The translations under genes were made by a program, and so were the position numbers. The notes beneath the pieces are model-generated. The model searched no databases. It worked only from the letters and a program-made list of their open reading frames with translations, and was not told the origin of the DNA. Shown here in pieces: positions 16,408 through 33,346 of a DNA stretch of 33,657 bases. Each line of letters begins with the position of its first letter. The stretch's first letter is position 1. Origin of the DNA: Candidatus Bathyarchaeia archaeon (lineage in GTDB: Archaea; Thermoproteota; Bathyarchaeia; Bathyarchaeales; Bathycorpusculaceae); assembly GCA_041676085.1 (NCBI GenBank), contig JBAYSO010000001.1, forward strand, positions 1 through 33,657, read 5' to 3'.

Positions 16408-16410
16408 AAT

Positions 16411-16695
16411 TTAAGAGGCCTCCTTTTCGTCTGCTGGCTGGCACCTATCATCTTGATCCCAGCTAATGGTCATATGCTGGTCACATTCAGAGATGGACCA
16501 CCCAACGACCTCTCTAACTTGCGGCTGCATCAAAAAAGCAGAAGCCCGATTATACAGGACATGATCACAATAACGAACAAAAATCAGTGGTTTTGATGGG
16601 TTCAAAAGAACAGCGTTGACTTCTTCATTTAGGCAGGACTTACAATTCGTTTCGCCAAATATGCCGTCAGGAGTTTTATTTGTAAGTCCAGCCAT
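16411..16695 (-). CDS. Small hypothetical protein, Cys-containing
   Basis: 94 aa, ends 3 nt before the integrase ORF; CKSC and CDH. Confidence 0.55.
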   Translation of the reverse strand: MAGLTNKTPDGIFGETNCKSCLNEEVNAVLLNPSKPLIFVRYCDHVLYNRASAFLMQPQVREVVGWSISECDQHMTISWDQDDRCQPADEKEAS

Positions 16696-16702
16696 TTTCC
16701 CA

Positions 16703-16901
16703 TCAACCTACTGTCTGTTTGTGTTGAGTCGTTTTGGTTTCCTTCTCAAAGATTGGCTGCAGAGTTATATTGTCGCTGACATCCATTGATAGCGCGATTA
16801 CTTTCCTACCTGTTTGGTCTTCGGGCGTTTGTTAGCCATGATTTAGGTATGGTGACTGCTTTGCTGTGACCCAGGTTTAGGATGTTTCTGATTATGGGCA
16901 T
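16703..16901 (-). pseudogene. AbrB/MazE-like DNA-binding protein with a +1 frameshift
   Basis: MPIIRNILNLGHSKAVTIPKSWLTNA, continuing in another frame as EDQTGRKVIALSMDVSDNITLQPIFEKE..*. Confidence 0.72.
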
Positions 16902-16914
16902 ACTTGATTCTCCA

Positions 16915-16993
16915 TTATGCGTGTCTACGCGTAAGTAGGTTTACATCCAACATTAACATTTTTTATGCATGGTAAAGGCATGTCTACGCATAA
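16915..16993. promoter_or_regulatory. Paired operator-like sites in the divergent promoter
   Basis: TTATGCGT-gtct-ACGCGTAA (16915-16934) and aaagGCaT-gtct-ACGCATAA (16974-16993). Confidence 0.6.
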
Positions 16994-17747
16994 TAAAAAA
17001 GCAAACACAAAAGTAAGCAAAAAAATGGAAAGCATACTCACGCCCCTAAGATACCTTGCTCATCACAAAGAAGCATCAGTAGAGGAAATCGCTAAGGAGA
17101 CTGGAAAAAACTACTCGACCATTCTCAGAACGATAACTGAACTTATCGAGAAAGGATTAGTAGATTATCATCATGAAAGAACTGCGCCCAGAGGAAAAGA
17201 GCTACGAATTTACAGCGCAAACTTGTACGGATTAATTTTCTACTGGAACGGACACTTTTCCAGTTTAGACATAAAAGAGGTTGCTAAAGCGCATGAGGAT
17301 ATGTTGCTTGTTTTCAAGAAATGGGAAAAGTTCGTTAAGGCAAAATGCGAACCTTACATGCTTGCTAGAGTAGCTTCGGCTGTGACTGCTGAGTTTCAAT
17401 TCCATAGTCAACAATATAATATGCTCATGGTAGTAGCAGGCTTGAGAGGAGCAGACATGATTAATATTTTTCGGAAGTCGGAGGAGCCTGCCCGTAGAGC
17501 TGCTTTTGATGTGACGGCTTTAGGCTTTAATTTCATGGCTCTTCCAGTGGAGCATGTTAAGGAGTTTTTGGGCAAGCAACAATGGCAGCAACTGGAGAGG
17601 ATATGGGCTGTTGTTGAAAGCGATTATGAACTTAGAGCAAAAAGGGACGAGTTTCTTGACAGGCTTGAAAGGGACCATGTAGAAGGTCTCAAAGCTATTG
17701 CAGAATGGAGAAAGTATCTAAAGCAAGAGCAAACATCACCAAAATAG
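16965..17747 (+). CDS. Winged helix-turn-helix transcriptional regulator with C-terminal helical domain
   Basis: ASVEEIAKETGKNYSTILRTITELIEKGLVD..RGKELRIYS; start may be 16980 or 17025. Confidence 0.82.
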   Translation: MHGKGMSTHNKKANTKVSKKMESILTPLRYLAHHKEASVEEIAKETGKNYSTILRTITELIEKGLVDYHHERTAPRGKELRIYSANLYGLIFYWNGHFSSLDIKEVAKAHEDMLLVFKKWEKFVKAKCEPYMLARVASAVTAEFQFHSQQYNMLMVVAGLRGADMINIFRKSEEPARRAAFDVTALGFNFMALPVEHVKEFLGKQQWQQLERIWAVVESDYELRAKRDEFLDRLERDHVEGLKAIAEWRKYLKQEQTSPK

Positions 17748-17750
17748 TCG

Positions 17751-18188
17751 AAACGGTTCAGCGGTAGAAGGAATAAAAAAATATTTTTTTTCTTGCAGGC
17801 TACCTATCTCTTTCCAGAGAAGAAGAAAAAACAGCTTATTTTCCACGGCAAAGCCCTTTTTTTCTTTCAACTTAAGACTAAAACGGTAGCTTGAAAAAGA
17901 AGAAGAAGACAATGACTCGCAGCGCAACCTGTTGTCTTCTTCTTTTAGTTGGAAGAAGAAAAAACGCTGTTGGCAAGCAGTTATTTTTTCTTCTTTCAGC
18001 CCCTAGCTAAGAAACGGAAATAATCGAAAGAACAACAACACTGGTGCATTTTGGTTTGTTGTTGTTCTTCTTTCAGGTTAGTGGTTAGAAGGGTTTGATG
18101 GCACACATGGGTTGACGCGCCATGATTAAGGGTTAACAGGGGTTTTTCGAGAAGGGCAGTTTGGGCTATGGCATGCCAACCCTTAATC
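17751..18188. repeat. Array of inverted repeats with (GAA)-rich left arms, (TTC)-rich right arms and unique loops
   Basis: Perfect stems 17900-17912/17932-17944, 17953-17964/17984-17995, 18028-18040/18057-18069; imperfect stem 17819-17868; separate 11-bp IR 18124-18134/18178-18188. Confidence 0.8.
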
Positions 18189-18304
18189 GTCCCTGTATCA
18201 GCCATGATGGCATAAAAATTTATTCCCAAATTAAGGAGCTCCAGTTGTAACTACGGTGCTTGATAGTCGTAAACGCTTTAAAGCTTAATGGGTAAACAAA
18301 AAGT

Positions 18305-18772
18305 ATGGATGAGCCAATACCCTTATTGAGCCTCAATCAAAATACACTAAAATCCGAGACACTCAAACACATCTCTCGTGTGTTAAAGAGGAGAAATATA
18401 CCGCATGTCTTGATAGTGAACCCCGACAGGTTTTGGTCGTACCATCGCTACCTAATAGAAGTATTCTCAAATCAGGAACCTGAAACTTTTCCACGCTACT
18501 ACTTCGACCGTGCATTCTGCAGAACAAAGCATCAGACGATGATTCACGATATTGCTTATAGGGAAAGGTTAGATATTGCGATTAAGGGTACTGTTGAAGT
18601 TATGGTTAAAGGGCAGATGAGAAATGGCGCTAACAGGATTTATTTCTCCGAGGGCTTAGCAAGAGTTGATGAGATACGCAAATTCTATGTCTGGGACTAC
18701 GGCAAAGGCGACTCTGCCTTACGCATAGACGCATACATTGACCCATACAGGCACAAATCTAATCAAGTATAG
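18305..18772 (+). CDS. Hypothetical protein
   Basis: 155-aa ORF preceded by AAACGCTTTAAAG (BRE/TATA-like) about 27 nt upstream. Confidence 0.65.
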   Translation: MDEPIPLLSLNQNTLKSETLKHISRVLKRRNIPHVLIVNPDRFWSYHRYLIEVFSNQEPETFPRYYFDRAFCRTKHQTMIHDIAYRERLDIAIKGTVEVMVKGQMRNGANRIYFSEGLARVDEIRKFYVWDYGKGDSALRIDAYIDPYRHKSNQV

Positions 18773-19106
18773 CCGAATTGATTTTTGTCGAAAACGAGGC
18801 TGGGTTAGTTTTTTAATAGCTGATGTCTCCAAGATGAGGCCTAAGAGGCTGAGGCTGGTAATTCAGGGCGTTAAAAGCTACATCCACATAGAAGCAGATT
18901 ACCTGTTGCGGATACACCGGATAGAATCAGAAACGCTCTCAGAATGGAAATGCCTAGCCGCATCATGGAAAATACAGCTAAACAGAGCACAAACCCCAGA
19001 GGAGAAAACCAAATACGAAAACCTGCTAAACAGCGCCCAAGAGCACATCAAACAGTTCCTTGAAGCCGGCGTAAAAGAAGTTAAGGAGCTTAAGGAGGTC
19101 GATTGA
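18738..19106 (+). CDS. Hypothetical protein, helical; start may be ATG 18834
   Basis: Open frame following the previous ORF; ends over the GGAGGT that precedes the next ORF. Confidence 0.55.
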   Translation: MTHTGTNLIKYSRIDFCRKRGWVSFLIADVSKMRPKRLRLVIQGVKSYIHIEADYLLRIHRIESETLSEWKCLAASWKIQLNRAQTPEEKTKYENLLNSAQEHIKQFLEAGVKEVKELKEVD

Positions 19107-19709: not shown

Positions 19710-20783
19710 CTATTGCGGTTGGCCGTGGGATTTTTTGAAGCGAACAACTGAAGCTGCAATTAATACGGTGATGGCGATCGTAATTATGGTTGCAACGGCG
19801 ATGGTTGTTGAGGCAAGCTCAAATCCCGTTGTGGGAACTTTGGTGCCGTAGGGTTCCATGAGCGGGTAGTGGTCAACGTTTTGGGCGTATATGGCGTTCA
19901 TGTTGGTCCAGTATTCTTTTGATTCCTGGGTCGGCACGTCGGCGGGGTCAATGTAGGCGGCTGGTCGAATGAAGTACGGCGTATCACCCACGCCTGGGGT
20001 GTTGGATTCGGTCGCGTTGGGGTATCTTGTGAGGTAATCATCCCAGAAGTTACCTGAGCCGTAACCGTCATCCCAAACATTGATTGAAAGTTTACTGGGG
20101 TAGCTGTAGATGAAACCTGGGTCTCCGACAGTGTAGTTGTTGTTGATGAAGTTGTTGTGGTAGATATGGTTGTCTTGGCTGGAATAAAATTGTAGAGCGG
20201 TATAACAATCCGTGATGGTGTTTCTGATGACGTAGTTGTTTTTGCATTCACTTGGCGGACGTCCTGTAGCGTATATTATTTCACTCGCGAAGTCTATTCC
20301 TATGGTGTTGTCATTGAGGTAGTTGCCTGTTATGTTGTTGTGGGAGCTCAATAACCTGATTGCTGTGGTTGATCCGAATGCCTCGACTGGGGCATTCGCA
20401 TGCATGATTGTGGTGTTTGTGATGGTGTTGTAGTCGCCTACTATGACAATACCACCTGAGAGAGTATGGTTGTTTCCATCAAAGATTATGTTGTTTTGTT
20501 CTATCTTTATACTTCCAGTGATATCAGAGTTCATAGTCCAGGTGTTGCCTTTTCTTGTTATAGGTGCTGTTGAAGGGTTTATGCCTCCCGCCTGGTTTAG
20601 GGTTATATCCCAGGTTTTCTCAACCGTATCCACACCGTAACTTTGAGCAAAAGGTGATTGAGCATTAATGACAACCTCTGTAAAATATTGATCTTGAGCT
20701 GAGCCATCTTGAGTCTCGATTATAACAATTAATATCGTAAGGCAAAACAACAAACCGATAATTCTGTTTAAAGCCTTATACAT
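19710..20783 (-). CDS. NosD/CASH parallel beta-helix surface protein
   Basis: Signal peptide, NNIIFDGNNHTL, NNITGN, IYHNNFINN, GNFWDDY, GVGDTPY, DHYPLMEP, C-terminal TM. Confidence 0.88.
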   Translation of the reverse strand: MYKALNRIIGLLFCLTILIVIIETQDGSAQDQYFTEVVINAQSPFAQSYGVDTVEKTWDITLNQAGGINPSTAPITRKGNTWTMNSDITGSIKIEQNNIIFDGNNHTLSGGIVIVGDYNTITNTTIMHANAPVEAFGSTTAIRLLSSHNNITGNYLNDNTIGIDFASEIIYATGRPPSECKNNYVIRNTITDCYTALQFYSSQDNHIYHNNFINNNYTVGDPGFIYSYPSKLSINVWDDGYGSGNFWDDYLTRYPNATESNTPGVGDTPYFIRPAAYIDPADVPTQESKEYWTNMNAIYAQNVDHYPLMEPYGTKVPTTGFELASTTIAVATIITIAITVLIAASVVRFKKSHGQPQ

Positions 20784-20869
20784 GCAAACGACTCAGTTCT
20801 TTTTGAAGATAAAGTTTATGCATGTTTAGCAGGTAAGAAAGAAAATAGTCCGCAATCTTTTTTAGGGGT

Positions 20870-20896
20870 TGGCGGGCCCGATGGCATTTGATGCCT
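20870..20896 (-). repeat. Degenerate copy of a tRNA 3' end (att-like)
   Basis: tggcgggcccgatggcatttgatgcct versus tggcgggcccggagggatttgaaccct at 14855: first 11 nt identical, 22/27 overall, same orientation. Confidence 0.65.
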
Positions 20897-21032
20897 GAGG
20901 CGCATTTATTCTGTTACCTCTTACTGGAGGGCGTTAGGATTTAGCCGAGCTTCTCCTAAATAGTTGATATCTGCCATCATAAACGGTTCGGTTCTGCTTT
21001 TTAATAAAGCTTGACAAGTCTTCAAAAGCTGA

Positions 21033-21063
21033 GTCAAGAAACTTTGACGAAAACCCTTTTTAG
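21033..21063 (+). promoter_or_regulatory. GTCAA-N6-TTGAC palindrome abutting BRE/TATA-like sequence
   Basis: GTCAAgaaactTTGAC then gaaaaccctttttag, about 30 nt before ATG 21094. Confidence 0.65.
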
Positions 21064-21093
21064 CGGTAAAATTCAGCATCACCTTGATGAAGT

Positions 21094-21810
21094 ATGAAGC
21101 GTAGAAATTTGGCGTTAATTGCCATTTTAACGCTTACAGTTTCCACTGTGGCTTCCTTGCAGGTCACTGATTTGGCAAGTGCAAATTATTTCCCTCCGCC
21201 TTCCATCGAAATCGACTCGCCTAATTCCTTAAAAGTCTATAATGACTCTTCTGTCCAGCTCTATGTTAGGGTTAACGCCTTACCAAGCGAATCTAGTAGC
21301 ATTACTTTCATTCGCTATTGCTTGGATGGAAAAGCCAACGTCACCCTAACCAACCTGTCAAGAGAGGACGGGCTTTACTATTGGACCTCCACAGAAGGTG
21401 TTATCGCTTCAGGCAACGGCTTTAGCGTGAACACTACTCTAGACAATCTAGCCGAAGGAAAGCACACACTTACTATATATTCGCATGCAACTGACGGAAA
21501 AGAAATGTCCCGAACAAGAGAGTTTACCGTTGATTATGATTATGTGCCTCCGCAAAACCCTTTTGGATTACCTGATAACTTGCTCAACGGCACTACAAGG
21601 CTACCACCCACAATCACTCAAAGACCTGAAGAATCCCAAACTGAAACACCACTACCCACAACAAATGAAGCCATCCACCCCTTGGAAAGTTCTCGCATAC
21701 TTTTCTTAATCATAGCCGTTGTAGCAGTGTTATTATTGGCGCCTGTACTCTACTTTAGGAGAAAATCGAGGGGCTTTATGGAACTGGAGGACGAAGACAA
21801 ATTATCTTAA
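21094..21810 (+). CDS. Secreted membrane-anchored Ig-like domain protein
   Basis: Signal peptide, PPSIEIDSP, YCLDGKANVT, LAEGKHTLTIY, FTVD, P/T linker, TM followed by RRK. Confidence 0.8.
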   Translation: MKRRNLALIAILTLTVSTVASLQVTDLASANYFPPPSIEIDSPNSLKVYNDSSVQLYVRVNALPSESSSITFIRYCLDGKANVTLTNLSREDGLYYWTSTEGVIASGNGFSVNTTLDNLAEGKHTLTIYSHATDGKEMSRTREFTVDYDYVPPQNPFGLPDNLLNGTTRLPPTITQRPEESQTETPLPTTNEAIHPLESSRILFLIIAVVAVLLLAPVLYFRRKSRGFMELEDEDKLS

Positions 21811-21845
21811 AAAGGTACATTTTAGCCATTGCTATAGTTGCCATA

Positions 21846-22751
21846 TTGATTATTAGCTCAAGCGTATATGCCTACTCAATGGCAACTCAAAACTCAAGTC
21901 TAACTTCTAATCAGAACAGCTTGTTCGTAGAGAGCTTTACCCCTACAGTCTTGGGTAGCAGTGTAATCGGCGGCAGAATTACCCTCGCAAATCCAACAGA
22001 CAAGGCTTTCGAGGACTTAACTTTGTCCCTCAAAATTGATGCTTCAGAACTAATAACACCGAATATGAGGTTATGGATGCCGCTGCCCATTGATGAACCC
22101 TTTAAAAATCGTTTTGTTCCATTAACCCAAATAAGCATTGAACCAGGTCAAAATGTGACGATTGGGCTCTATCTATATGACCCGGATCAAAACGAACCGC
22201 CTTTCTATCAGACAAGCGTGAACATCCAGACTTTCAGTCCTCATACAATCGAGTTTTACATTACTCAGAACACATTTGGTGACATAATTAACGGTCAATC
22301 TCTAATAATACCTCAACAAAAAGCGTACCTACAAATCACAGGCTATAGCCCAGTAGAACACAGTAAGGACACGTGGCACCAACATTTCAACAGTAGCACA
22401 AACCGCTATGAATACATAAACGACCAACCAAACTTTTACCAGCAATACCACCAATCAACATACTACCCAATGACACCCATGTCATATTGGGCGGCTAAAG
22501 CATACAATCAACTTGGCAACAGCTACTTCAACGTAACAATATATAACAACAGCACCTTCGCAGTGAGCGCAATTACTTTGTTTGGAGGCTCCTCGCCAGA
22601 CGGGCAAAGCATTCTGGGATCAGCATTAATGAACTATGTTTTGCAGCCCAATGAAACATATGTTTTTCCAGTTTCGGCATCAGCTACTCCATTGTATAGT
22701 TATATAAGCGGCAACTTGATTATTACTCAAACGGAATCAAAAAACACTTAG
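21846..22751 (+). CDS. Secreted beta-rich hypothetical protein; 5' end probably frameshifted
   Basis: Frame is open upstream as KKVHLAIAIVAILIISS; Ig-like ITLANPT..IEPGQ and FNVTIYNNS..LQPNETY segments. Confidence 0.7.
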   Translation: MIISSSVYAYSMATQNSSLTSNQNSLFVESFTPTVLGSSVIGGRITLANPTDKAFEDLTLSLKIDASELITPNMRLWMPLPIDEPFKNRFVPLTQISIEPGQNVTIGLYLYDPDQNEPPFYQTSVNIQTFSPHTIEFYITQNTFGDIINGQSLIIPQQKAYLQITGYSPVEHSKDTWHQHFNSSTNRYEYINDQPNFYQQYHQSTYYPMTPMSYWAAKAYNQLGNSYFNVTIYNNSTFAVSAITLFGGSSPDGQSILGSALMNYVLQPNETYVFPVSASATPLYSYISGNLIITQTESKNT

Positions 22752-22769
22752 TCTTAGGTAAGATTAACG

Positions 22770-23915
22770 ATGAAGCGTAAGGGTTTGCTTTTAATCGCCA
22801 TCATTATCATCGCCAGTTTGGCTTTCATTTATTCGCAGAGTTCAAGTTGGGAGGCAAGCGTTGAGGCAGATGAGTTCTATTTTGGGGCTTCTTTTGGAGG
22901 ACAAAACCCGCAAGAAGCAAAAGCGCTAATAAACAAAGTCAAAAACTACACCAACTTTTTCGTCATCGGTTCCTACGACCTATCTATAAACGAGACAGCC
23001 CTAAACGAAGTCTGCGACTACGCAGCCCAAGCAAACCTCAACTTCATCGTCTTTTTCGATTTTATCTCAAGGATTACTTACCCATGGCATCAAACCTGGC
23101 TCGACACAGCAAAAGAGCGGTGGGGTGACAAGTTTTTGGGTATTTATCTGAGAGATGAACCGGGCGGACATCAAATTGACGGACAAGAACCCATTAAAAA
23201 CGCCTCTGACTATAGCGATGCAGCAAGCCGGTTCGTTGAGAACATTACTCTTTCCAATAGCATGATAGATGCAAAAAACAAAAGCATCCCAACCTTCACA
23301 TCGGACTATGCACTTTACTGGTATGATTACCAAGCTGGCTACGACACGGTTTTTGCGGAGTTAGGCTGGAAGCTAAATTCAACCCAGCAGATAGCGCTCT
23401 GCCGAGGAGCAGCAAACATGCAAGGCAAGGACTGGGGTGCAATAATCGTCTGGAGCACCTATGAGCCTCCGTATTTGGGAAGCGCTCAAGAAGTTTATGA
23501 TGACATGGTTTTGGCTTATAGTGCAGGAGCAAAATACGTTGTAGTGTTCAATTACCCTAATTATCCTGAAGATAATCCGTATGGCATACTATCCGAAGAG
23601 CACTTTGAAGCTATGGAGCAGTTTTGGAGTTATGCTAACGCTAATCCCAGAGGGAACGGCGGTAGAGTCAACGGTGAAGTGGCTTTGGTTTTACCTAAAG
23701 ATTATGGTTGGGGCATGAGGAGAAATGAGTACATAACGCAGGATAACATCTGGGGGCTGTGGCCTGAAGATGAAAAAGCGCCTCTGATTTTGGAGACCGC
23801 TAACAAACTGCTAAACGAATACGGCTTGAAACTGGACATAATTTATGCGAATGCATCTTTTGATTATGAAGGGAAATACTCTAAGGTTTACGTCTGGAAC
23901 GTTACAATCACTTAG
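22770..23915 (+). CDS. Secreted glycoside-hydrolase-like (TIM barrel) protein
   Basis: N-terminal TM, FLGIYLRDEPGG, YDTVFAELGW, AYSAGAKYVVVF. Confidence 0.6.
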   Translation: MKRKGLLLIAIIIIASLAFIYSQSSSWEASVEADEFYFGASFGGQNPQEAKALINKVKNYTNFFVIGSYDLSINETALNEVCDYAAQANLNFIVFFDFISRITYPWHQTWLDTAKERWGDKFLGIYLRDEPGGHQIDGQEPIKNASDYSDAASRFVENITLSNSMIDAKNKSIPTFTSDYALYWYDYQAGYDTVFAELGWKLNSTQQIALCRGAANMQGKDWGAIIVWSTYEPPYLGSAQEVYDDMVLAYSAGAKYVVVFNYPNYPEDNPYGILSEEHFEAMEQFWSYANANPRGNGGRVNGEVALVLPKDYGWGMRRNEYITQDNIWGLWPEDEKAPLILETANKLLNEYGLKLDIIYANASFDYEGKYSKVYVWNVTIT

Positions 23916-23979
23916 CATTAAGGTCTAATAAATAACTTTTTACAGTGGTTCAAACGTATTATCAGACTTGGATGCCTTT

Positions 23980-24188
23980 ATGGTTGCTTTCGAGTGCCCC
24001 TTCTGCAACCAAACCATCGAGGCTAAACCGCCCGATGAAGTACATTCAGCGTACTCTTTCGAGAGACCAATACCTAAAGCTACCATGGCAAGCTAATCGA
24101 AAAAGAGTTGACGTGCCCAAACCCCGAATGCAGAGAACCAATAGCCGTTTACTGGTATGCACCATTGGACTACTTCAACAGAGTCTAA
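23980..24188 (+). pseudogene. Small zinc-ribbon protein with a -1 frameshift
   Basis: MVAFECPFCNQTIEAKPPDEVHSAYSFERPIPK / SYHGKLIEKELTCPNPECREPIAVYWYAPLDYFNRV*. Confidence 0.7.
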
Positions 24189-24252
24189 CTATGGAGAAAG
24201 GCTTGTGGGCATTCGCTGAAGGTGATTTATAACCATTTTAAAAAGAAAGCAT

Positions 24253-25374
24253 TTAAAAAGAACGAAAATGATTTTGGTAACTTCTTTTCTTGATGATAAC
24301 TACTCCAGCAATTGCTAGTGCACCTATGATGATTACAACAAGGGTTATTGCTGTCGTGTTTCCTATTTCCAATGCCGCTATTGCAGTTGCTTGTGGCGTT
24401 GATTCTGATGATTCTGAAGTTGAATTTGTAGGTTGAAAGTCTCCACTTATGCCGAGTGCTCTAATGTTTATTATTTCTCCCGTATCAGCCCATAGGTTCA
24501 CTCTTATGAACGTAGCTGATCCAGGGTATGTTTCGTTTAAAGGCAAATCAACCTTCCAGAGCGGATACAACTCAAAAGACTGATATCTGTCCATGACTTC
24601 CAACTCGGCCCTTATAGTTTCCTTTACGATTCCAAAGTTTTCCACTTTTTCGTCTTTGTATGTATACGAATAGCTTTCCGCTCTATCTAGAGCAATATCG
24701 ATGGCTTGAGTTTTCATTATTTTTACGTCTGTGTTACCTATTTTGTAATAGCTCATAACTTGATCGAAAGCGTAAAAATCCTTTTCTCTGAAACTCAAAG
24801 TAAGCGCAGGATAATCTGCCCCATTAAAGGTTCTTTTGAGGTCAAAAGAAGTCCATTGACCAGTGTCTGATACTTCAAGTTTGATGTTATCACTAGCTAT
24901 TGTTTCATTACTTGAAATCGGGGCGTTTGATAGTATATTTGACATATCTCTTATCCTTGAATCCCCGCTGTAAAATTCATATCTTTGAAGAAGGAGTGAG
25001 GCAGCATTTGCCTTCTCAAGCGGGAGTTGCTGAGAATAGTTTACTTCGCCAGATTGGATGTACATATGGCAGGACAACAAAGTCTCTTCCAAAAAACTGT
25101 AAGTAACTTCTAAATTGTTTGTTTCTGAATAAAGACCTATTTTACCGTAAGTGTAAGGTAATCCTTCGAATCGCTTGTAATCTGTTAAAGGTCCGGTCAG
25201 TTCTACGACATCGTATCTTTCAGTATCTATTAGCACAACTTCGTTCAAAAAATATAATATATTAATTGCAGGCACGGATTGCCCGGTTGCCGATAAGATT
25301 ATAGGTATTTGAGCGATACCAACCATGAAAAGAACGGCGAATACAACCAATATTTTTATTTTTTTATTCAGCAT
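24253..25374 (-). CDS. Membrane-anchored extracellular protein with PepSY-like domain
   Basis: Signal peptide; IMKTQAIDIAL..YPLWKV..IRVNLWADTGEII; S/T linker; TM followed by KKR. Confidence 0.7.
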   Translation of the reverse strand: MLNKKIKILVVFAVLFMVGIAQIPIILSATGQSVPAINILYFLNEVVLIDTERYDVVELTGPLTDYKRFEGLPYTYGKIGLYSETNNLEVTYSFLEETLLSCHMYIQSGEVNYSQQLPLEKANAASLLLQRYEFYSGDSRIRDMSNILSNAPISSNETIASDNIKLEVSDTGQWTSFDLKRTFNGADYPALTLSFREKDFYAFDQVMSYYKIGNTDVKIMKTQAIDIALDRAESYSYTYKDEKVENFGIVKETIRAELEVMDRYQSFELYPLWKVDLPLNETYPGSATFIRVNLWADTGEIINIRALGISGDFQPTNSTSESSESTPQATAIAALEIGNTTAITLVVIIIGALAIAGVVIIKKRSYQNHFRSF

Positions 25375-25389
25375 TTTTTGTCACTCCTT

Positions 25390-26958
25390 TCAATGTGGCA
25401 TAATATGGTCGCCATCTCCCCAAACACGCATTCGTCCATCTTGCCAAACTCCAAATACTGGTATCTGGTAACCATCATAGCCAATGTCAGAACTCTGGTA
25501 AGACACGCCATTTACTAGATATGACGCTTCATCTAGAGCTTGTCTTACAGTATAGCCATTCATTAATCGATCATAGAAATAGGCTACGAACTGTGCGTAA
25601 TCATAGTTATAAAGTTCCGCTTCATAATCATACCACATTGAAACACCATCGAAGCTTATATACACGTGATCGTTCTGATCTGGATTTAGATAACCGTCAT
25701 GAGCAGGATTCGTGCCAACGTTTAAAACCGAGGGGCTGATGTCCATCCACGAGGGAAGAATACCCGAGCTATGGGCTCGATTATAAACGCCAATTCTCCC
25801 TTCAGACCCAAGATCGCAAGCCCAGTTAAATACAAAGTCATGATTTCCATAGAATCTACCAGCTGCATCTCTTCCATAATTTACTGCATCGTCAATCGAA
25901 AAGTCCTCAATCGGTTCATAGTTTCTATTTCTTGACCATACGCCATAATGGGTAAGTGTACAATCTGGATAATCACAATAATAATAGAATGGTTCATAGC
26001 CAAGAAAAGCAATGTGGCCCTTGTAGAAGACCGATGAGTAATCAGCGACTTGCTCTGTGTAGACTGTATAGCTATGGACATAATCGTTTGTAGTCAAGGA
26101 GCCAAAAGCGTTATTGTGGTATCCGCTTGGGTATTTTCCAGTATTGTATACAAGACTGTCTTGATAACTAGCGACAGCCGAGGACAGGTAGTATTCATTG
26201 CCTGGTGCACTCATGTCGTAATAATCCTCAGTTCCGTAAGTTATGAAACTTGCTCGTCTAAAGATGCCATAGTCATAATAGTAACCGCCGCTTTCCATGA
26301 AAGAATAACCCTGAAAATGATAAGTTTTTAGTACATTATTGTTTGAGTCCAAAATTTGCAGATAATCAACTTCTAGTCCAACTGTATCTGCCGTCCAATA
26401 ATCAACGTTTTTGATTATAATCGTAACGACAGAGCTTGTAAAGCTAGACAAGTCTAGAATGCCCGAAGTATCGGTTTGCCAATTGACCCAGCCTCCATTG
26501 CTAGTAGTAGCGTAGCTACAAGCTGTAACATATATGTAGTCAGTGACTGGATGTTCGGCGTCGCCTTGAGTTCGGAACTCGCCAGAATTAATTAGTTTTC
26601 TGTTATGCTCATGGTTGACTACGAAGACGTCCGCAAGATCAACATAGTCCCCGGTCCAATCATAGTACCACCTCCAAGAGATTCTTAACTTTTTTCCGTC
26701 AAGATAATCTCTGTCCAGATGCATAAAAGCATAGGCATCACCAAGTCCAGGATCATTGGACATCATCCGTAGAACGCTATCACCTGACTGGCTAAATGTG
26801 TAGCTAGGATTATAGCTGCTCCATTGTTTGTATTCTTTTACTGCAAAAGATTCAAGTCTTAAACTCTCGTCTCTTGCCTCAACAGGCAGAGCGGACATTG
26901 TTGTGAATAGCGATAAGAAGAGCAAAAGCAAACAGATGCTCACACGAGTTTTTGCCAT
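25390..26958 (-). CDS. Secreted protein: jelly-roll-like domain plus putative clan CD (gingipain/caspase-fold) peptidase
   Basis: Signal ending PVEA; VFYKGH, FVFNWACDLG, GYTVRQALDEAS, MRVWGDG. Confidence 0.68.
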   Translation of the reverse strand: MAKTRVSICLLLLFLSLFTTMSALPVEARDESLRLESFAVKEYKQWSSYNPSYTFSQSGDSVLRMMSNDPGLGDAYAFMHLDRDYLDGKKLRISWRWYYDWTGDYVDLADVFVVNHEHNRKLINSGEFRTQGDAEHPVTDYIYVTACSYATTSNGGWVNWQTDTSGILDLSSFTSSVVTIIIKNVDYWTADTVGLEVDYLQILDSNNNVLKTYHFQGYSFMESGGYYYDYGIFRRASFITYGTEDYYDMSAPGNEYYLSSAVASYQDSLVYNTGKYPSGYHNNAFGSLTTNDYVHSYTVYTEQVADYSSVFYKGHIAFLGYEPFYYYCDYPDCTLTHYGVWSRNRNYEPIEDFSIDDAVNYGRDAAGRFYGNHDFVFNWACDLGSEGRIGVYNRAHSSGILPSWMDISPSVLNVGTNPAHDGYLNPDQNDHVYISFDGVSMWYDYEAELYNYDYAQFVAYFYDRLMNGYTVRQALDEASYLVNGVSYQSSDIGYDGYQIPVFGVWQDGRMRVWGDGDHIMPH

Positions 26959-27187
26959 TTATATTCCTCGTAGGTTGCGTCTTCAGATATAATAGCGAGG
27001 GCAAGTGTTATAAAGTTTGCCATAAATAGGCTTGTAACAATTGGCTTTCTACTTGACTCACTCCAATTATAGCGGCAGGTAGGGAGAGCTTAATATTTGG
27101 AGTGAAGCAATTTCTTTAATCAGGATTTACTGTTCTAAAAAGTAGATTTGAGTGCTGTTTCTAGCTTAGAATTATCGGATTAGCTAA

Positions 27188-27586
27188 ATGAGCCGAAAGC
27201 GTGCGCTCGTGCTAGTCGGTGTTGGAGTGGCCTTTATTGTCTTAGCGTTAGCAATCCTGCTGGCGGGCAATCAACCAACGGCATCCTCAACTCCCGAATC
27301 AAAGGCGACATCTATCTGCACTTTCCAAGCGACTATCAAGACGGCGCTCAAGCCAAAGCTTGCTTGATTGACTCACAGCTTTACTATGGCGTTTATAATG
27401 AAAGCTTTTCCATGTTCTGGAGCTACCGGTGACTACTCAATATACAAAGGCTACCCCTGCATTGTAATCAACGGAACAATCCAAAACGACTATGACAAGG
27501 ACTACTATTTTGGCATAAACGCAAACGTATACAAGTTCGATGGATACAGAATCGAGCCAGTGCTCACAGTTAATTCACACATCTAG
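27188..27586 (+). pseudogene. Frameshifted, truncated exported protein gene
   Basis: MSRKRALVLVGVGVAFIVLALAILLAG / GDIYLHFPSDY..LIDSQLYYGVYNES / GATGDYSIYKGYPCIVINGTIQNDY across three frames. Confidence 0.6.
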
Positions 27587-27623
27587 GCTCTGCTTTGAAA
27601 AAAAAGATAGGGAACTAATGCAG

Positions 27624-30377
27624 TTATTGTTTGATTACGGTTATGTCGTCGAACTCTGCCGTTGAAGAGTAATGGGTATACATTGCGGTGGAGCCGGCGA
27701 AGTCATCCAACCAGGCATGGCTGATTTGCATGTGCAGATGGCCATTTACCCAAACGTATGCTTTTGTGCCGATGATGTCTATGTCTATAGTATTTGTGTT
27801 AAATGGATTCAACCCAGCATTAACGCTCCATTGAACCTTATCCCAGTTGCGGTATATTGCAAATTCTAGATAGCCGTTGGTATGAATTAATGCATAGGCC
27901 ATATTATTCCATTGACTGTCATGTTTGGCTATTACCCAAGCCGTATCCCATGTGTCAGCACCTGCTGTGATTGTTCTTACCTGTACCCGAACATGTCGAT
28001 CGTTTGAGAATTGGTCATTTGTGCGTATCAATGAAAGGCCCTGTTGAGCTCTTAGAATCCCACTGCTAGCTGTCCATGACCCTTGGTTGACTGTCCAGCC
28101 ATTGTAATTTCCGTCGGTAAAGTCATCGCCGAATGCTTTCAAATGTATTCTTCCGTTGCCATAGATTTCGAGAGTAGAAGTGCTCCATTCTGGCGGGACA
28201 TACATGTTCCACCAAATGGGGGCAAATCCAGTATGCAAGGGAGTTGACAAGAAAGGTCCACCAATGAACTGGTTGGAGGCTGCATTTAGAGCTTCAATTA
28301 CTGACTCATCTAGAGCTACAGCATGATAGAAAAAGCTGACAACCCACCAGTAATATGGATTGCCCCCTCCCCCGCCATAGGGTATGCCCTGCTCCAAAGA
28401 TGCTGAACCTCTTGGAAAGCCTATGAAGACTTGAGAGCCATCATCAGGGTGGCTAAAACCATCATTACTCATCTGTACATCAATGTTTGTTATTGTATCC
28501 CATGGTTTAACCTCGCGGTGTGTAAAAGCATACGGTATTCCAAGTGCTCGGCCATTATTATAGCCCTGATATGGGTCACCTGTCACAGGGTTTGTCAAAC
28601 TTGCAGATAAACAGGTATTAATAAAGGCCAGTGTTGTCTTTCCACGATCGCAGTCATCTATTGCATTGTATATTTCCTCGTCATAGATGCCATGTGAGGG
28701 GTCCCAATAATAGTTATTAGGGTAATCGCTGCCAATGCCTGTACCAGTCTGGTCTTCGAACATGAAATGTAACTGACCGTTTATGTAGTTACCGACACCA
28801 TGATCGAACGTAACAAATGCTACTCGGCTGCTATCGGCTGTTTTGAGGTTAATATCATTGTTGAGAATTTGCGTTTTTGTCGAACCAGGGTTTCTGTGAC
28901 CTTGATGATTGTATGCATAGAAACCACCTTCTTGGAACCAATTTGTAAGGTAAACAGATGTGTCCCTTTGATATACGCGTTCATTGTAACTTTTTCTCCA
29001 GTTGTCATTAGGTGATGCGTAACCTGGTTGATCTGCACCACTGCTCTCGGAACCCCAAACAATGCCTGTTTTTGACCACGCGCTGACTGGTGAGAGGGGA
29101 GCCAACAATGCTATCGATAATGTTAAAATGCAAAGCAGTATTCCTAAAGTCTTAGAGTGCCCAGCCTTCATTATGGATTCCAAGCGTATTTGTTTCTTTT
29201 TGTAAACCAGAATTGAGGTAGTTGCTGTTGACATAACAATAGTCATGAGTGCAACCCAAAGAATCAAGCTGTAACTTACCTCAGTTATTTGTTGTTGATT
29301 GGTTTCTTTTTTTGTTACGTTTATGTCTGCAGTTGGCACTCCCTCTGGAGCGGGCACGGTAGACCAGGCCTCGTGTACACCTCTAACTTCTCTCGTGTCT
29401 GCCCAAATATCAACCTCTATCCCATATAGCGATCCATACCATTTGTCCAGTACAACACCGATTTTCCAAGTAGGGTAAAGCTCTAAAGCATCTGCACTTC
29501 GAGGTTTGCTAGCGTTTAACGAATGATCGAAAAGAAGAGATGCCCAGCATATGTTTGTTTGATTGACGTTTATTTCATTGAAGGCATAGTCGTCGAGTTT
29601 AAGTGTATGAGCGTAATTTCTGGCAGCGTCTATTGCGATAGTTATAGCTTCTTCTTCAGAGAGATTTACGTTTGTACTTCCAATGTTAAAGAACTGCCAA
29701 TTGTCTACAAATGCGGCTAAAAAGTCACCTTCAAAGCCCAAAGTTACGTACTTGGTGTAAGGAGCTTCAACACCGTTTGCAGTGTAATACCACTTGAAAT
29801 TAGTGTAATCATCAAATGAAATCATTTCAAGAGCTATGTCGCCTGTAACCTTAGTAATGTTTTTACCCATGTCAACGTTGCTCAGAGTAGATATTAGGTT
29901 TCCGAAAAGCTTATTGTTAGTATAGTTTTGGTAACTGTTTAGGAATTTTTTTGCATTTTCAACATGGTCGATGCTGGCTTCTGCTTTGATTAGGTTAGGT
30001 GTACCTTCCCTACCAAGAACTTGTATCATTTGTAGTTTGTTATTTCCATAAGTATACTGAACCGTTAATTTACTATTTTCAGAGGTTAGAGAATATGCAA
30101 TGTTTTCTTGAGAAACGAGGTTTAAGTAGGTAACTGACATGTTATCCTTTGGGTACGCTTTTGCTTCTATAGAGTACTTTTCCATGTCGAGCCCAAAAAT
30201 GGTATTTAAGGCGTTAAAGCTTTGCTGCTGAATCTCGCTGGTTGGTTGTGCATAAACTGTGGGCATAAGCCCAGAGTAAGTAGCACTGATTGTTAGCAAC
30301 GATAGAATGAAAACAGTTGTGATAAATAGATTTTTTTTCTTGCTAAAGCTTATTTTTCCATTTTTCATATTGTTCAC
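27624..30377 (-). CDS. Fusion protein: PepSY-like ectodomain, TM, internal signal peptide, putative clan CD peptidase, ConA/LamG-like domain
   Basis: LSEEEAITIA..YPTWKI..IEVDIWADTREV; two hydrophobic segments; FVTFDHG, AFINTC, ALNAAS, IYGNG; DDFTDG..WTVNQGSW..AEFDDITV. Confidence 0.72.
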   Translation of the reverse strand: MNNMKNGKISFSKKKNLFITTVFILSLLTISATYSGLMPTVYAQPTSEIQQQSFNALNTIFGLDMEKYSIEAKAYPKDNMSVTYLNLVSQENIAYSLTSENSKLTVQYTYGNNKLQMIQVLGREGTPNLIKAEASIDHVENAKKFLNSYQNYTNNKLFGNLISTLSNVDMGKNITKVTGDIALEMISFDDYTNFKWYYTANGVEAPYTKYVTLGFEGDFLAAFVDNWQFFNIGSTNVNLSEEEAITIAIDAARNYAHTLKLDDYAFNEINVNQTNICWASLLFDHSLNASKPRSADALELYPTWKIGVVLDKWYGSLYGIEVDIWADTREVRGVHEAWSTVPAPEGVPTADINVTKKETNQQQITEVSYSLILWVALMTIVMSTATTSILVYKKKQIRLESIMKAGHSKTLGILLCILTLSIALLAPLSPVSAWSKTGIVWGSESSGADQPGYASPNDNWRKSYNERVYQRDTSVYLTNWFQEGGFYAYNHQGHRNPGSTKTQILNNDINLKTADSSRVAFVTFDHGVGNYINGQLHFMFEDQTGTGIGSDYPNNYYWDPSHGIYDEEIYNAIDDCDRGKTTLAFINTCLSASLTNPVTGDPYQGYNNGRALGIPYAFTHREVKPWDTITNIDVQMSNDGFSHPDDGSQVFIGFPRGSASLEQGIPYGGGGGNPYYWWVVSFFYHAVALDESVIEALNAASNQFIGGPFLSTPLHTGFAPIWWNMYVPPEWSTSTLEIYGNGRIHLKAFGDDFTDGNYNGWTVNQGSWTASSGILRAQQGLSLIRTNDQFSNDRHVRVQVRTITAGADTWDTAWVIAKHDSQWNNMAYALIHTNGYLEFAIYRNWDKVQWSVNAGLNPFNTNTIDIDIIGTKAYVWVNGHLHMQISHAWLDDFAGSTAMYTHYSSTAEFDDITVIKQ

Positions 30378-30698
30378 CTGTATAAAGGCGAATAAAGACT
30401 ATTTTCTTCTATGGTGTATTAAAAATCTTATATCAGAAACAACCATTAATTAGGCTTCTTAATTCATTGTCAATCCAATGAATGTAAGCATATTGGTGTT
30501 GCTCAAAAAATGAACAACCTGTAGTGCAATGGCAATTATTTTAATAAGACATCGCCAACTATAAACACGGGCATGACGCCTGCTATTTTGTTAACCTGAT
30601 AATAATCTCTAGTTCCTTGGATAGGTCGCCCCCCACTCCTGAAAATTTTTCCGTAAAATATATTATTAACCTTAACCGATTTCCAGATTGGACACACT

Positions 30699-31859
30699 AT
30701 GAGCCAAAAAACTATTTCGGCTTTTATACTTATTTGCCTATCTGTCACTGGAGCAATTGCTGTTAATTCTACCCGAGCTGCTGACACTTCCGATTCTTGG
30801 ATTGAAAAGGCACCTATGAATGAGGCAAGAAGCGGGTTAGGCGTCGCTGCTGTAGATGGGAAAATCTATGCTATAGGCGGCTCAACTGCCAATGGGTCAG
30901 CAACAAGTAGTCCTCCCCAATTAATCATAACTAACGAAAGATTTGTTGACGGTTTTGTAGGTACAAATGAGGAATACGATCCCATAACAGATACTTGGAC
31001 CTACAAAGAAAGCATGCCAACTGCGAGAATCGGCTTTGCTACTGCGGTTTACCAAAATAAAATTTATTGTATAGGCGGAAGAACAAGTAGCGGTTATACT
31101 GCAGTGAATGAGGTTTATGACCCTAAAACTAACACATGGGACGTTAAGGCATCCATGCCTACCCCCAAAGCTTGGATAACAGCAAGCATTGTTGGAGATA
31201 AAATCTATGTAGTAGGAGGCGGCGTTTATGACCCAGTCAGAGATTCTTGGTCTTCCAATGAGTCTATAGCACTTTCTAAGTCAGTTAGCGATTCCTGGGC
31301 GCTAAACGAATCTATAGCACCATACGACATCTTTGCTTCAGCATCTCTTAACACGAAAATATACATTGTAGGCGGTTTCTCACAGGACCTGTGGCATAAC
31401 AAGAACTTAATTTACGATACAGAAACAGACATGTTTAGCTCTGGTTCATACCCACCGTCTAGTATAGCTACGGGTGCAGCAGTTGCTTTCGATGAAAAGG
31501 TCTTTGTTTTTGGGTATTCGCAAAACTTTGATTTTACTCACATTTATGATCCCTTCAGTGATAACTGGACTATTGGTTCTAGTCCCCCTATTAGTTATCT
31601 CTTCAATTTCGGCATAGCCAACGTAGGTGATAAATTGTATGTGATAGGCGGCTTCACTTACAACATGATAACATTTACGCCCAGCAGCGCCAATCAGCAG
31701 TATACTCCAGCGCAAATAGTAACACCTTCGCCGACGCAAATGTCTCCGCAAGAAAATGAATTAGGGATTTCTCCTTTGCTGATTATTTTGCCATTCGTTT
31801 TATTGGTTGTTATAGGAGTTGGTTTACTTCTATTTTTTAAAAAAGTAAAAAGAAAATAG
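30699..31859 (+). CDS. Kelch-repeat surface protein
   Basis: Repeated GKIYAIGG/KIYCIGG/YDP..W..MPT blades; signal peptide; C-terminal TM followed by KKVKRK. Confidence 0.92.
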   Translation: MSQKTISAFILICLSVTGAIAVNSTRAADTSDSWIEKAPMNEARSGLGVAAVDGKIYAIGGSTANGSATSSPPQLIITNERFVDGFVGTNEEYDPITDTWTYKESMPTARIGFATAVYQNKIYCIGGRTSSGYTAVNEVYDPKTNTWDVKASMPTPKAWITASIVGDKIYVVGGGVYDPVRDSWSSNESIALSKSVSDSWALNESIAPYDIFASASLNTKIYIVGGFSQDLWHNKNLIYDTETDMFSSGSYPPSSIATGAAVAFDEKVFVFGYSQNFDFTHIYDPFSDNWTIGSSPPISYLFNFGIANVGDKLYVIGGFTYNMITFTPSSANQQYTPAQIVTPSPTQMSPQENELGISPLLIILPFVLLVVIGVGLLLFFKKVKRK

Positions 31860-32041
31860 AAGCGGAAAGGTGTCGCTAGCTATGACCTTTCTTAGTTTTT
31901 GAACCCTCTGAATTTCATCCACTCTACTTGTAGTTTAGAATCAGCTGCAAAAAAAGTTTTGTTGTTCTTTGAATGAGCACACTGTTCCAAACATTAGCTT
32001 TAAGTTCTAAATTAACAAACAAGTACTATGAGGTTAGGTAC

Positions 32042-33346
32042 ATGAGCCATAGTCCTACTCAATTGTTTGCTTTAACCGTTATAGCACTACTATTATCGGC
32101 TATGGTTTTAGCGCTTTCTCCTGCATCGGGACAACTCAATCTGGCTAGTACATCAAGCACTATTCCCCAAGCAGACCAAGAATTCGCCAACGGCACACTC
32201 GCCTCTAACAATGCGCCCTTCAAAGTCTGGTACAACTGGGTAAACGTTTCAAACACACAAATCCTCTACTATGCAGCCTACACCACGCCAGATTATCCCT
32301 TTCCAGTTCCAATCGCCAACATCGTAGGCCAACACTTCAGTTTAGAAGATGGCACCCAAGTTTTCATTGCCAGCGCTCTATCTGAATTGGAGGTTTACCA
32401 TGACCTCAACGGCGACGGCATCCCACAAACCAACACAGGCGCAGATGAGAATGAGGTTCTCTACTACATTTACTCTAACATGAGCCAAGGCTACAGCATG
32501 ACACCCATCCAGAAAACAACAATCGATTCAGTTCCACATTACCAGTGGAGCTTCACCTACCAAAACGCTTATGCATACCTGCAAAATGCTCAGGCACGAG
32601 TCGGCGTTGTTGCAAGAATGTTCTTTGAGCACTTAACCCTAAACTACGATTTTAGCGTACAGGGGAATGTTTCTGATTTGAAGACAAGCTTTGACATAGG
32701 AAAAGTCACCAACCTCGAAGTTCTTGAGCCCTCCGAGTTTTCCTCTTTCGACGACTTAAGCTTAGCTTTACTATACGCCACAGCCACCTACACATCAAAA
32801 CCCTACTCAACTTCTGTTAATGGGCAGCCATACGACTCTTCCACAGCAGATTCAGCGGTAGGAGCAGACGTTGCCGAAGTAAAGGTGGACGATGTTAAAG
32901 CTTATGACTTTGTCTTCGGGGGAAACTATACGCTAAACAGGGACGGCAGCACTGAGACCCATGGTGCAAGTGTGGAAACCTATGAAGCGCAGGCTCAAGC
33001 GGTTCCAGCTACGGGATTGCCAACGATTTATGGTCCAACAGTACGAAGCATCGGCTTCTTTACTGACTACCTAAACCTGGCTGATCTTTTCGGCGGTTCA
33101 TGGCCAAGCGTTAACTCAAACTACGAGTCCTCATCGCTAATCTATCGAATCTGCTTCCCAGAATGGGATGGCATGCAAATAGAGCACGACCCAACATTCC
33201 TCGGATACATATACAACAACCAAGAAATCCCAGAAATACCAACAATAACGCTAATCATAATCCCAATAGTAATCGCTAGCTCACTGGCACTATTATTCCA
33301 AAGAAAACGCAGACTCACAAAGCCTCAGTCAAGAAAGTTTGACTAA
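32042..33346 (+). CDS. Secreted protein with PEF-CTERM-like sorting tail
   Basis: ATG 32042 precedes the signal peptide; DLNGDG Ca-loop-like motif, IEHDP, then IPEIP, TM and RKRR. Confidence 0.75.
   Translation: MSHSPTQLFALTVIALLLSAMVLALSPASGQLNLASTSSTIPQADQEFANGTLASNNAPFKVWYNWVNVSNTQILYYAAYTTPDYPFPVPIANIVGQHFSLEDGTQVFIASALSELEVYHDLNGDGIPQTNTGADENEVLYYIYSNMSQGYSMTPIQKTTIDSVPHYQWSFTYQNAYAYLQNAQARVGVVARMFFEHLTLNYDFSVQGNVSDLKTSFDIGKVTNLEVLEPSEFSSFDDLSLALLYATATYTSKPYSTSVNGQPYDSSTADSAVGADVAEVKVDDVKAYDFVFGGNYTLNRDGSTETHGASVETYEAQAQAVPATGLPTIYGPTVRSIGFFTDYLNLADLFGGSWPSVNSNYESSSLIYRICFPEWDGMQIEHDPTFLGYIYNNQEIPEIPTITLIIIPIVIASSLALLFQRKRRLTKPQSRKFD

Follow-up and report, generated by a model that had tools for sequence, protein, structure and literature searches.

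A predicted caspase-fold peptidase and its PepSY-like membrane partner, split and fused at one locus of a Bathyarchaeia archaeon

Why should a single archaeal locus hold the same two extracellular modules twice, once as two adjoining genes and once as one gene in which their order is reversed? The question is posed by a stretch of 33,657 nucleotides of a Candidatus Bathyarchaeia archaeon (assembly GCA_041676085.1, contig JBAYSO010000001.1, positions 1 to 33,657; the whole stretch is called the window below), in which an earlier sequence-only reading had noticed open reading frames of 373, 522 and 917 amino acids (aa), all on the minus strand and all confirmed here by their translations, and had taken them for a secreted clan CD-like peptidase and a PepSY-like membrane partner. 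In the present analysis the His/Cys domain of the peptidase is, according to the structural models, of the clan CD (caspase-hemoglobinase) fold and lies outside every modelled family, and the partner ectodomain is, by its predicted structure, a set of tandem PepSY-like modules. The reading that we favour, at rather better than an even chance, is that the modelled partner would serve as a detached, membrane-anchored pro-domain, which meets the enzyme at export, aids its folding and holds it inactive. The three genes are as follows.

25390 to 26958, minus strand: split-copy peptidase gene (522 aa), with signal peptide, accessory domain and His/Cys domain (sequence).
24253 to 25374, minus strand: split-copy partner gene (373 aa), with hydrophobic leader, tandem PepSY-like ectodomain, Ser/Thr-rich linker, membrane anchor and basic tail (sequence; model with a predicted local distance difference test score, pLDDT, of 92.6; fold matches).
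27624 to 30377, minus strand: fused gene (917 aa), with signal peptide, PepSY-like ectodomain, anchor, basic loop, internal signal peptide, His/Cys domain and beta-sandwich.

The relationship between the two copies, first proposed from short shared motifs, holds for both modules. The 373-aa protein and the N-terminal half of the 917-aa protein are 26% identical over 290 aa (BLASTP, E 5e-20) and contain the motif pairs QAIDIAL/EAITIAI, ELYPLWKV/ELYPTWKI, NLWADTGEI/DIWADTREV and IGNTDVKI/IGSTNVNL. The C-terminal domain of the 522-aa protein and the middle of the 917-aa protein give a pairwise match of only E 9e-4; a profile-profile alignment of the two His/Cys domains reaches probability 99.9 and E 1.6e-32, with H315/H526, C381/C589 and E255/E466 in shared columns, and the pairs FYKGH/TFDHG, FNWAC/FINTC, ALDEAS/ALNAAS and VWGDG/IYGNG are all present. 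The His-Cys spacing is 66 aa in one copy and 63 aa in the other, the module order is swapped and the accessory domains are different, as the sequence-only reading had it. A Pfam scan of the three proteins returned no matches, and an NCBIfam scan returned noise only. The peptidase genes are divided as follows.

25393 to 26253, minus strand: caspase-hemoglobinase-type domain of the 522-aa protein (Atlas structure matches to C14, C13 and CHAT; feature matches to DUF6345; profile-profile alignment), with Glu255 at 26194-26196, His315 at 26014-26016 and Cys381 at 25816-25818.
26254 to 26874, minus strand: N-terminal accessory domain of the 522-aa protein, kept in the close family (alignment; family searches) and without a Pfam or NCBIfam match.
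28134 to 29078, minus strand: caspase-hemoglobinase domain of the fused protein (model with pLDDT 92.8 and predicted template modelling score, pTM, 0.93; fold searches), with Glu466 at 28980-28982, His526 at 28800-28802 and Cys589 at 28611-28613.
27627 to 28133, minus strand: accessory beta-sandwich at the C-terminus of the fused protein (3keto-disac_hyd match of E 0.001, weak and short of the curated cut-off).

In the model of the fused His/Cys domain, His96 follows a strand at 88-94 and Cys159 a strand at 151-157 (domain numbering of the fused copy); in clan CD the His is placed on the loop after the third and the Cys after the fourth element (PMC4357240). The matches listed by Foldseek for this domain were all caspases, MALT1, metacaspases and one bacterial relative. 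In the VIA fold search the best 35 of 50 rows were caspase-fold chains, headed by metacaspase 9 (Z 14.0, root-mean-square deviation (rmsd) 4.1, 212 aligned), and the other leading matches were SAVED-CHAT, legumain-type enzymes, MALT1, gingipains, GPI (glycosylphosphatidylinositol) transamidase and separase, none of them clearly ahead; identities in the structural alignments to clan CD enzymes were 7-16%. For the split-copy domain, a lower-confidence Atlas model matches C14, C13 and CHAT clusters, and the best language-model feature matches are to DUF6345 (0.95-0.96). A profile built from 58 members (alignment A2) gathered 880 clusters at 50% identity (E up to 0.001), and the best 150 of these were aligned as representatives of the family. 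All of them have the Cys, and near-invariant besides are the first His (98%), a Glu (99%), a Ser (98%), a second His (96%) and an Asp (95%), so that both the fold and the conserved dyad that the sequence-only reading had anticipated are borne out.

None of the 58 A2 members matched a clan CD Pfam model at E 0.5, no Pfam or NCBIfam model of the named families C11, C13, C14, C25 and CHAT was matched, and sequence searches of the PDB with the peptidase and partner profiles returned no relative and no similar complex. The predicted fold, together with the absence of any family-model match, makes the domain a member of no modelled clan CD family. The module's enzyme shares the predicted fold and the strand-His/strand-Cys pair with C14, CHAT, C13, C25 and C11, and differs from them, apart from the failure of their models, in being secreted and in having a separately anchored PepSY-like partner that replaces the clan CD pro-domain. 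From the model we infer proteolytic activity; the near-invariant Glu could favour Arg or Lys at P1, or could simply bind the partner tail. Peptidases in a large survey of Bathyarchaeia were annotated by similarity to MEROPS (PMC10321748), a procedure which would probably miss this family. Database-based peptidase counts cannot see it, and the module would add a large unannotated clan CD family (the 880 clusters) to one of the most abundant groups of sediment archaea.

The accessory domains vary widely among relatives, in which LamG, PKD, DUF2341, FG-GAP, InlB-B repeats, F5/8 and a weak choice-of-anchor J are found. In some peptidases (L015, L016, P0248) the accessory domain is inserted within the caspase fold itself, just past the catalytic Cys; these insertions include a weak choice-of-anchor J match and, in another peptidase, FG-GAP repeats.

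The partner is divided as follows.

24439 to 25287, minus strand: ectodomain of the split partner, residues 30-312, with three helix-plus-sheet PepSY-like modules (model and fold matches).
24289 to 24357, minus strand: hydrophobic anchor at the C-terminus of the split partner, roughly residues 340-362 (sequence).
29343 to 30248, minus strand: PepSY-like ectodomain of the fused protein, residues 44-345 (BLASTP; complex model).
29346 to 29375, minus strand: tail of that ectodomain, residues 335-344 of the 917-aa protein, predicted to lie over the catalytic site (complex model).

In the model of the 373-aa protein the ectodomain consists of a helix packed on an antiparallel sheet, in tandem copies. 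Its best fold match is to the C-terminal PepSY domains of YpeB (5boi; E 1.6e-6; Z 10.1 with 203 aligned at rmsd 7.0). Next come the propeptides of vibriolysin (3nqy, E 1.1e-5) and of an Aspergillus metalloproteinase, and YycH/YycI are among the weak matches. None of 18 partner members matched a Pfam PepSY model, and sequence models run on the same 18 gave one weak DUF4901 (YcdB/YcdC) match (E 6e-4); it is the fold that upholds the earlier PepSY-like assignment.

How the two modules may act together is suggested by the complex prediction for the two halves of the fused protein, which scored 0.89, against 0.26 for the best of three controls; 116 of 157 solved complexes and 2 of 215 mismatches attain this score mark, counts that are only roughly valid with custom alignments. 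The runs share at least 80% of contacts, with a partner pLDDT of at least 83. In the predicted interface His96, Cys159, Glu36 and Ser228 of the domain contact partner residues 292-301, the tail after the last strand, and His96 and Cys159 both touch the same partner interface. A tail placed over the catalytic site, as modelled, fits either a pseudo-substrate inhibitor or a real cleavage site; the gingipain pro-domain is described as putting a loop into the active site (PMC4357240). According to the anchored pro-domain reading, the exported caspase-fold enzyme would be bound by the anchored PepSY-like partner while leaving the cell, and the partner, wrapped around it with the tail behind the last PepSY module predicted to cross the catalytic residues, would help the enzyme to fold and keep it inactive at the cell surface until release. 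Release would follow if the tail is cleaved, or upon displacement, and the swapped accessory domains would direct the enzyme to surface glycoproteins or particles. Once free, the enzyme might provide nutrients, remodel the surface of its own cell or attack other cells.

The nearest precedent that has been tested is SleB-YpeB of Bacillus spores, also a secreted hydrolase with a co-encoded membrane protein, in which the three PepSY domains of YpeB embrace SleB and are proposed to be chaperone-inhibitors, and in which lower levels are reported upon separation of the genes (10.64898/2026.06.01.729290). A similar loss of levels upon gene separation would explain the strict adjacency of the two modules and the polyprotein described below. 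The systems differ in that SleB is cortex-lytic and YpeB single-purpose, whereas here a predicted caspase-fold protease is joined to a partner with a C-terminal anchor, in many copies and in fusible form.

The fused form departs from a simple gene fusion at the junction, where the sequence-only reading had overlooked an internal signal peptide: a membrane anchor is followed by a basic loop and a second hydrophobic segment. The parts are as follows.

29202 to 29267, minus strand: first membrane segment of the fused protein, equivalent to the partner's anchor, residues 371-392 (sequence; homolog alignment).
29079 to 29201, minus strand: basic loop and internal signal peptide, residues 393-433, ending in Val-Ser-Ala, with a predicted signal-peptidase cut after Ala433.

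A basic stretch, a hydrophobic segment and a small-x-Ala site make up the anatomy of a signal peptide cut by type I signal peptidase. Of 49 fused homologs, 47 have small-x-Ala behind the second hydrophobic segment and 10 have it behind the first, compared with 41 for true N-terminal leaders and a background of 34%; the strict form Val-x-Ala follows the second segment in 36 of 49 (background 7%), and the net charge of the loop is at least +4 in all 49. Since a signal-peptidase-type site is conserved ahead of the peptidase in 47 of 49, the fused gene likely encodes, to judge from these sequences, a polyprotein cleaved by signal peptidase. If signal peptidase cuts after Ala433, the partner would stay anchored and the enzyme would be set free, so that the fused gene would deliver what the two split genes deliver, in a 1:1 ratio and by a single export channel. 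The internal signal peptide thus points to a prokaryotic polyprotein by which the co-export of enzyme and keeper would be enforced. M4 and M36 propeptides (FTP and PepSY) are comparable in that the PepSY part of the fused form also comes ahead of the enzyme, with its C-terminal end predicted in the cleft; they differ in being soluble, in-chain pro-domains of zinc enzymes that are autolytically removed, while the pro-part of the module is membrane-anchored and set apart from the enzyme either by lying in a gene of its own or by the internal signal peptide.

An assembly error or a chance read-through was considered as the origin of the fusion and rejected, as contigs of four other DNA runs (X2, X3, X4, X8) span the junction free of indels, and the same fusion is present in 69 of 150 family representatives, all 69 with the partner first and the peptidase second. 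Four DNA runs, each of a different study, show the window's locus to be near-invariant. The idea that one gene gives two proteins through an internal start at Met403 was also discarded: there is no clear upstream ribosome-binding site, and no Met of the loop is conserved in the 49 homologs. Two further fused paralogs of this genome (L003 and L004, on contigs C200 and C87) are frameshifted or interrupted in the assembly, and such copies of the module are common in relatives.

Is the pairing specific to this locus? The neighbourhood survey in Bathyarchaeia that the sequence-only reading had suggested was run over 151 genomes of the family; it gave 143 peptidase matches, of which 30 (second gene pieces and short fragments) were dropped and 113 followed. 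A same-strand partner lies within 700 bases in 106 of the 113, five are at contig ends and two are alone, one of these being a 128-aa fragment. The partner is a separate downstream gene in 63 cases and upstream in 43 (mostly fused, with few separate or frameshifted frames). Peptidase matches occur in 44 of the 151 genomes and partner matches in 58, with both in 41 of the 44 peptidase-positive genomes, so the expected co-occurrence of the two families was found; the matches in the three remaining genomes are short or interrupted. The spread is patchy, with 27 of 79 good genomes positive and no match in 107 of 151, near-complete ones included, and copy number reaches 11 peptidase matches per genome; this genome has six, and 13 partner matches. 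The split form is mostly laid out as peptidase gene then partner gene, as in the window, where the partner starts 15 bases after the stop of the 522-aa gene with a purine-rich, ribosome-binding-like site in the gap. As the fused order is constant across the family and the split order mostly so, the order swap seen in the window is a rule of the family. All 29 named records from the fused-profile search are labelled Bathyarchaeia or carry looser archaeal names, and of 201 genomes sampled across the class, 25 gave a match, nearly all of them in the same order.

Identities of peptidases and of their partners are correlated (Spearman 0.79 over 114 pairs; shuffles at most 0.20), which indicates that the pairs stay together and is not proof of co-evolution. 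In a tree of 76 peptidases the split and fused arrangements cluster by lineage, with 5 changes against 24.5 when shuffled; the tree comes from a quick search with most fused rows subsampled, and does not fix the number of fusion events.

Several observations weigh against the anchored pro-domain reading. The complex was modelled for the fused pair only, on fused-protein alignments, and the modelled tail in the cleft fits a substrate equally well as an inhibitor. Inter-chain covariation is weak over the 114 pairs: 18 predicted contacts were scorable, with a mean z of 0.62, a value reached in 0.5% of draws from random pairs and 1.3% from interface pairs, and it was not counted, as the top pairs stem from a misaligned His register and many of the pairs also fed the complex prediction. 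The partner is also not dedicated to the peptidase, 17 of the 58 partner-positive genomes being without a peptidase match; the list of partner matches has 83 for which no peptidase is listed, 40 of them were sampled, and 20 of these are ArsR-type membrane regulators, 17 stand alone or in larger surface proteins and three have a weak peptidase match. Finally, one peptidase of the fused type (L136, G070:C2) looks intact and has a signal peptide of its own, yet no partner lies within about 3 kb of it. At four further loci (L143, L150, L153, L171) the partner ectodomain closes a long surface protein that has beta-helix or propeller-like parts, and no peptidase is adjacent.

The sequence-only reading had joined two ideas, a protease with a cognate inhibitor or chaperone, which the complex model supports, and a diversification like that of polymorphic effector-immunity pairs, which fared less well. 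In the latter case released peptidases would attack the surface proteins of competitors, the membrane partner would protect the producer and its kin, and orphan partners would be extra immunity. The high copy number, the patchy spread, the many frameshifted or interrupted copies and the fact that the peptidase almost never occurs without a partner while partners do occur alone speak for such a system, and in split pairs the predicted interface positions of the partner are more variable (0.36) than its other positions (0.49), without a surface-residue control. Bacterial polymorphic toxins contain secreted caspase-like (Tox-Caspase) domains beside a partner gene (PMC3482391), and the adjacent partner gene typical of these systems is found in 106 of 113 cases, though the partner domain is not confined to that role and is used away from any peptidase. 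However, a variable toxin on a constant carrier with orphan cassettes is not what the module presents: the catalytic domain is constant and not swapped, the accessory domains are what varies, the pairs co-diverge, no arrays of orphan tips occur at the loci read and the locus is nearly identical in the four DNA runs. The same paper describes classical polymorphic systems as rare in archaea, and the word PepSY does not occur in the first 300,000 characters of its text (PMC3482391). We regard effector-immunity as unlikely, and note that it is compatible with the chaperone-inhibitor reading.

Distinctly unlikely, in our view, is that the partner is a tether, activator or substrate, which would either hold an active protease on the cell or be cleaved after its last PepSY module, with shedding of the pair. 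The modelled position of the tail at the catalytic site agrees with this, as does its conservation by class: counted from the Trp of the WADT motif, position +16 is Gly in 23 of 24 split pairs, and +14/+15 are Ser/Thr in most of 84 fused proteins; the equivalent place is cut in M4 propeptides. But the structures nearest to that of the partner belong to proteins that inhibit or chaperone, and lone partners keep a similar small-residue tail (Gly +16 in 9 of 15), so that the tail may be merely the start of a linker.

A broader and quite speculative possibility, to which we give little credence, is an extracellular caspase network, in which dozens of secreted proteases, each with a PepSY keeper of its own and often made as a polyprotein cut by signal peptidase, act on the surfaces of neighbours, orphan keepers cross-protect and ArsR-PepSY regulators sense the proteases through the same domain and switch genes; if true, this would be an archaeal protease-based discrimination of self from non-self. 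The regulators invoked here have an ArsR/DUF7347 winged-helix part, a membrane segment and a PepSY-like ectodomain, and are putative one-component membrane regulators of Bathyarchaeia. Among the best 120 homologs of the ectodomain, most have it fused to an ArsR-type helix-turn-helix, and this genome has two such genes (L006:1324-2646 on contig C240, and L007 on contig C102), with a further 20 loci among L142-L180.

That such regulators bind these enzymes or are cut by them, altering transcription, appears improbable. Their ectodomain is shared with the partner, and 93 of 115 long regulator-type matches end exactly 14 residues past the motif Trp, next to the spot where the partner tail meets the active site in the model. 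Yet no peptidase match and no common neighbour theme was found near any of the 20 regulator loci, some genomes (e.g., G016) hold a regulator without a peptidase match, and PepSY-like folds serve other sensors too, such as YycH/YycI. Very improbable is a transpeptidase, of which GPI transamidase and PorU are examples, processing C-terminally anchored surface proteins with the partner as subunit, for although GPI transamidase chain K (Z 11.6) and an asparaginyl ligase (Z 13.1) are among the fold matches and secreted proteins anchored at their C-terminus abound in the window and at other loci, the peptidase was found in a minority of the genomes, near-complete ones among the negatives, its many divergent and broken copies ill suit a housekeeping sortase, and the fold matches do not single out C13.

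To return to the anchored pro-domain reading, its architecture recurs in a second family. The DUF6345 model (PF19872) has four loci over its cut-off in 251 genomes of the phylum (L181-L184), and all four have a YcdB/YycI-like or similar membrane partner. Three are split, peptidase then partner, with weak YycI-like and YcdB-like matches in the partners of two of them, and one (L182) is fused in the order partner, anchor, basic loop, signal peptide, DUF6345. PF19872 matched none of the 58 A2 members and nothing in this genome, and the module profiles barely score DUF6345 proteins. Judged at the sequence level, DUF6345 is a sister family with the same architecture, and since its archaeal loci share the layout, the architecture spans two sequence-distinct caspase-like families; this offers DUF6345 a testable function. 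In a literature search with most subscription papers outside its scope, no description of a caspase-PepSY pairing or of a caspase-type peptidase of Bathyarchaeia was found, and for DUF6345 only one unrelated proteomics paper. The module may thus represent a further form of the arrangement of a protease with a PepSY keeper and, on the models, the first found PepSY-type control of a caspase-fold enzyme.

The locus is also covered by RNA. Contigs from RNA libraries (three libraries of two studies, from anaerobic digesters) cover much of the 522-aa gene, and one of them spans 26967 to 25189, reaching from the peptidase gene into the partner gene, although such contigs cannot show strand, level or a single transcript. 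RNA contigs of both studies end at 26967, nine bases ahead of the 522-aa start codon, whereas DNA runs continue, which weakly hints at a transcript start at this position. Parts of the fused gene are covered too, and the region 27044-27611 is outside the coverage. Much of that region is occupied by a further feature between the two modules.

27188 to 27586, plus strand: small interrupted gene for a membrane-anchored product, 59 aa with a hydrophobic N-terminus, an in-frame stop and 72 aa.

This gene gave no useful NCBIfam match and is probably outside the peptidase-partner system. Both modules sit in a surface-protein island (19710-33346), where secreted proteins that are anchored in the membrane by their C-termini follow one another (NosD-like beta-helix, Ig-like, Kelch and a 457-aa protein without assignment). 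At 22770-23915 on the plus strand lies a 381-aa, N-terminally anchored protein without a Pfam match, with a conserved D-E-P-G-G motif and a relative in locus L017, which may, as a guess, be a glycoside-hydrolase-like barrel. Farther away, at 15022-16407 on the minus strand, a tyrosine integrase with an N-terminal zinc ribbon stands beside a winged-helix gene and two unassigned open reading frames, and the region 15022-19106 is possibly an integrated element.

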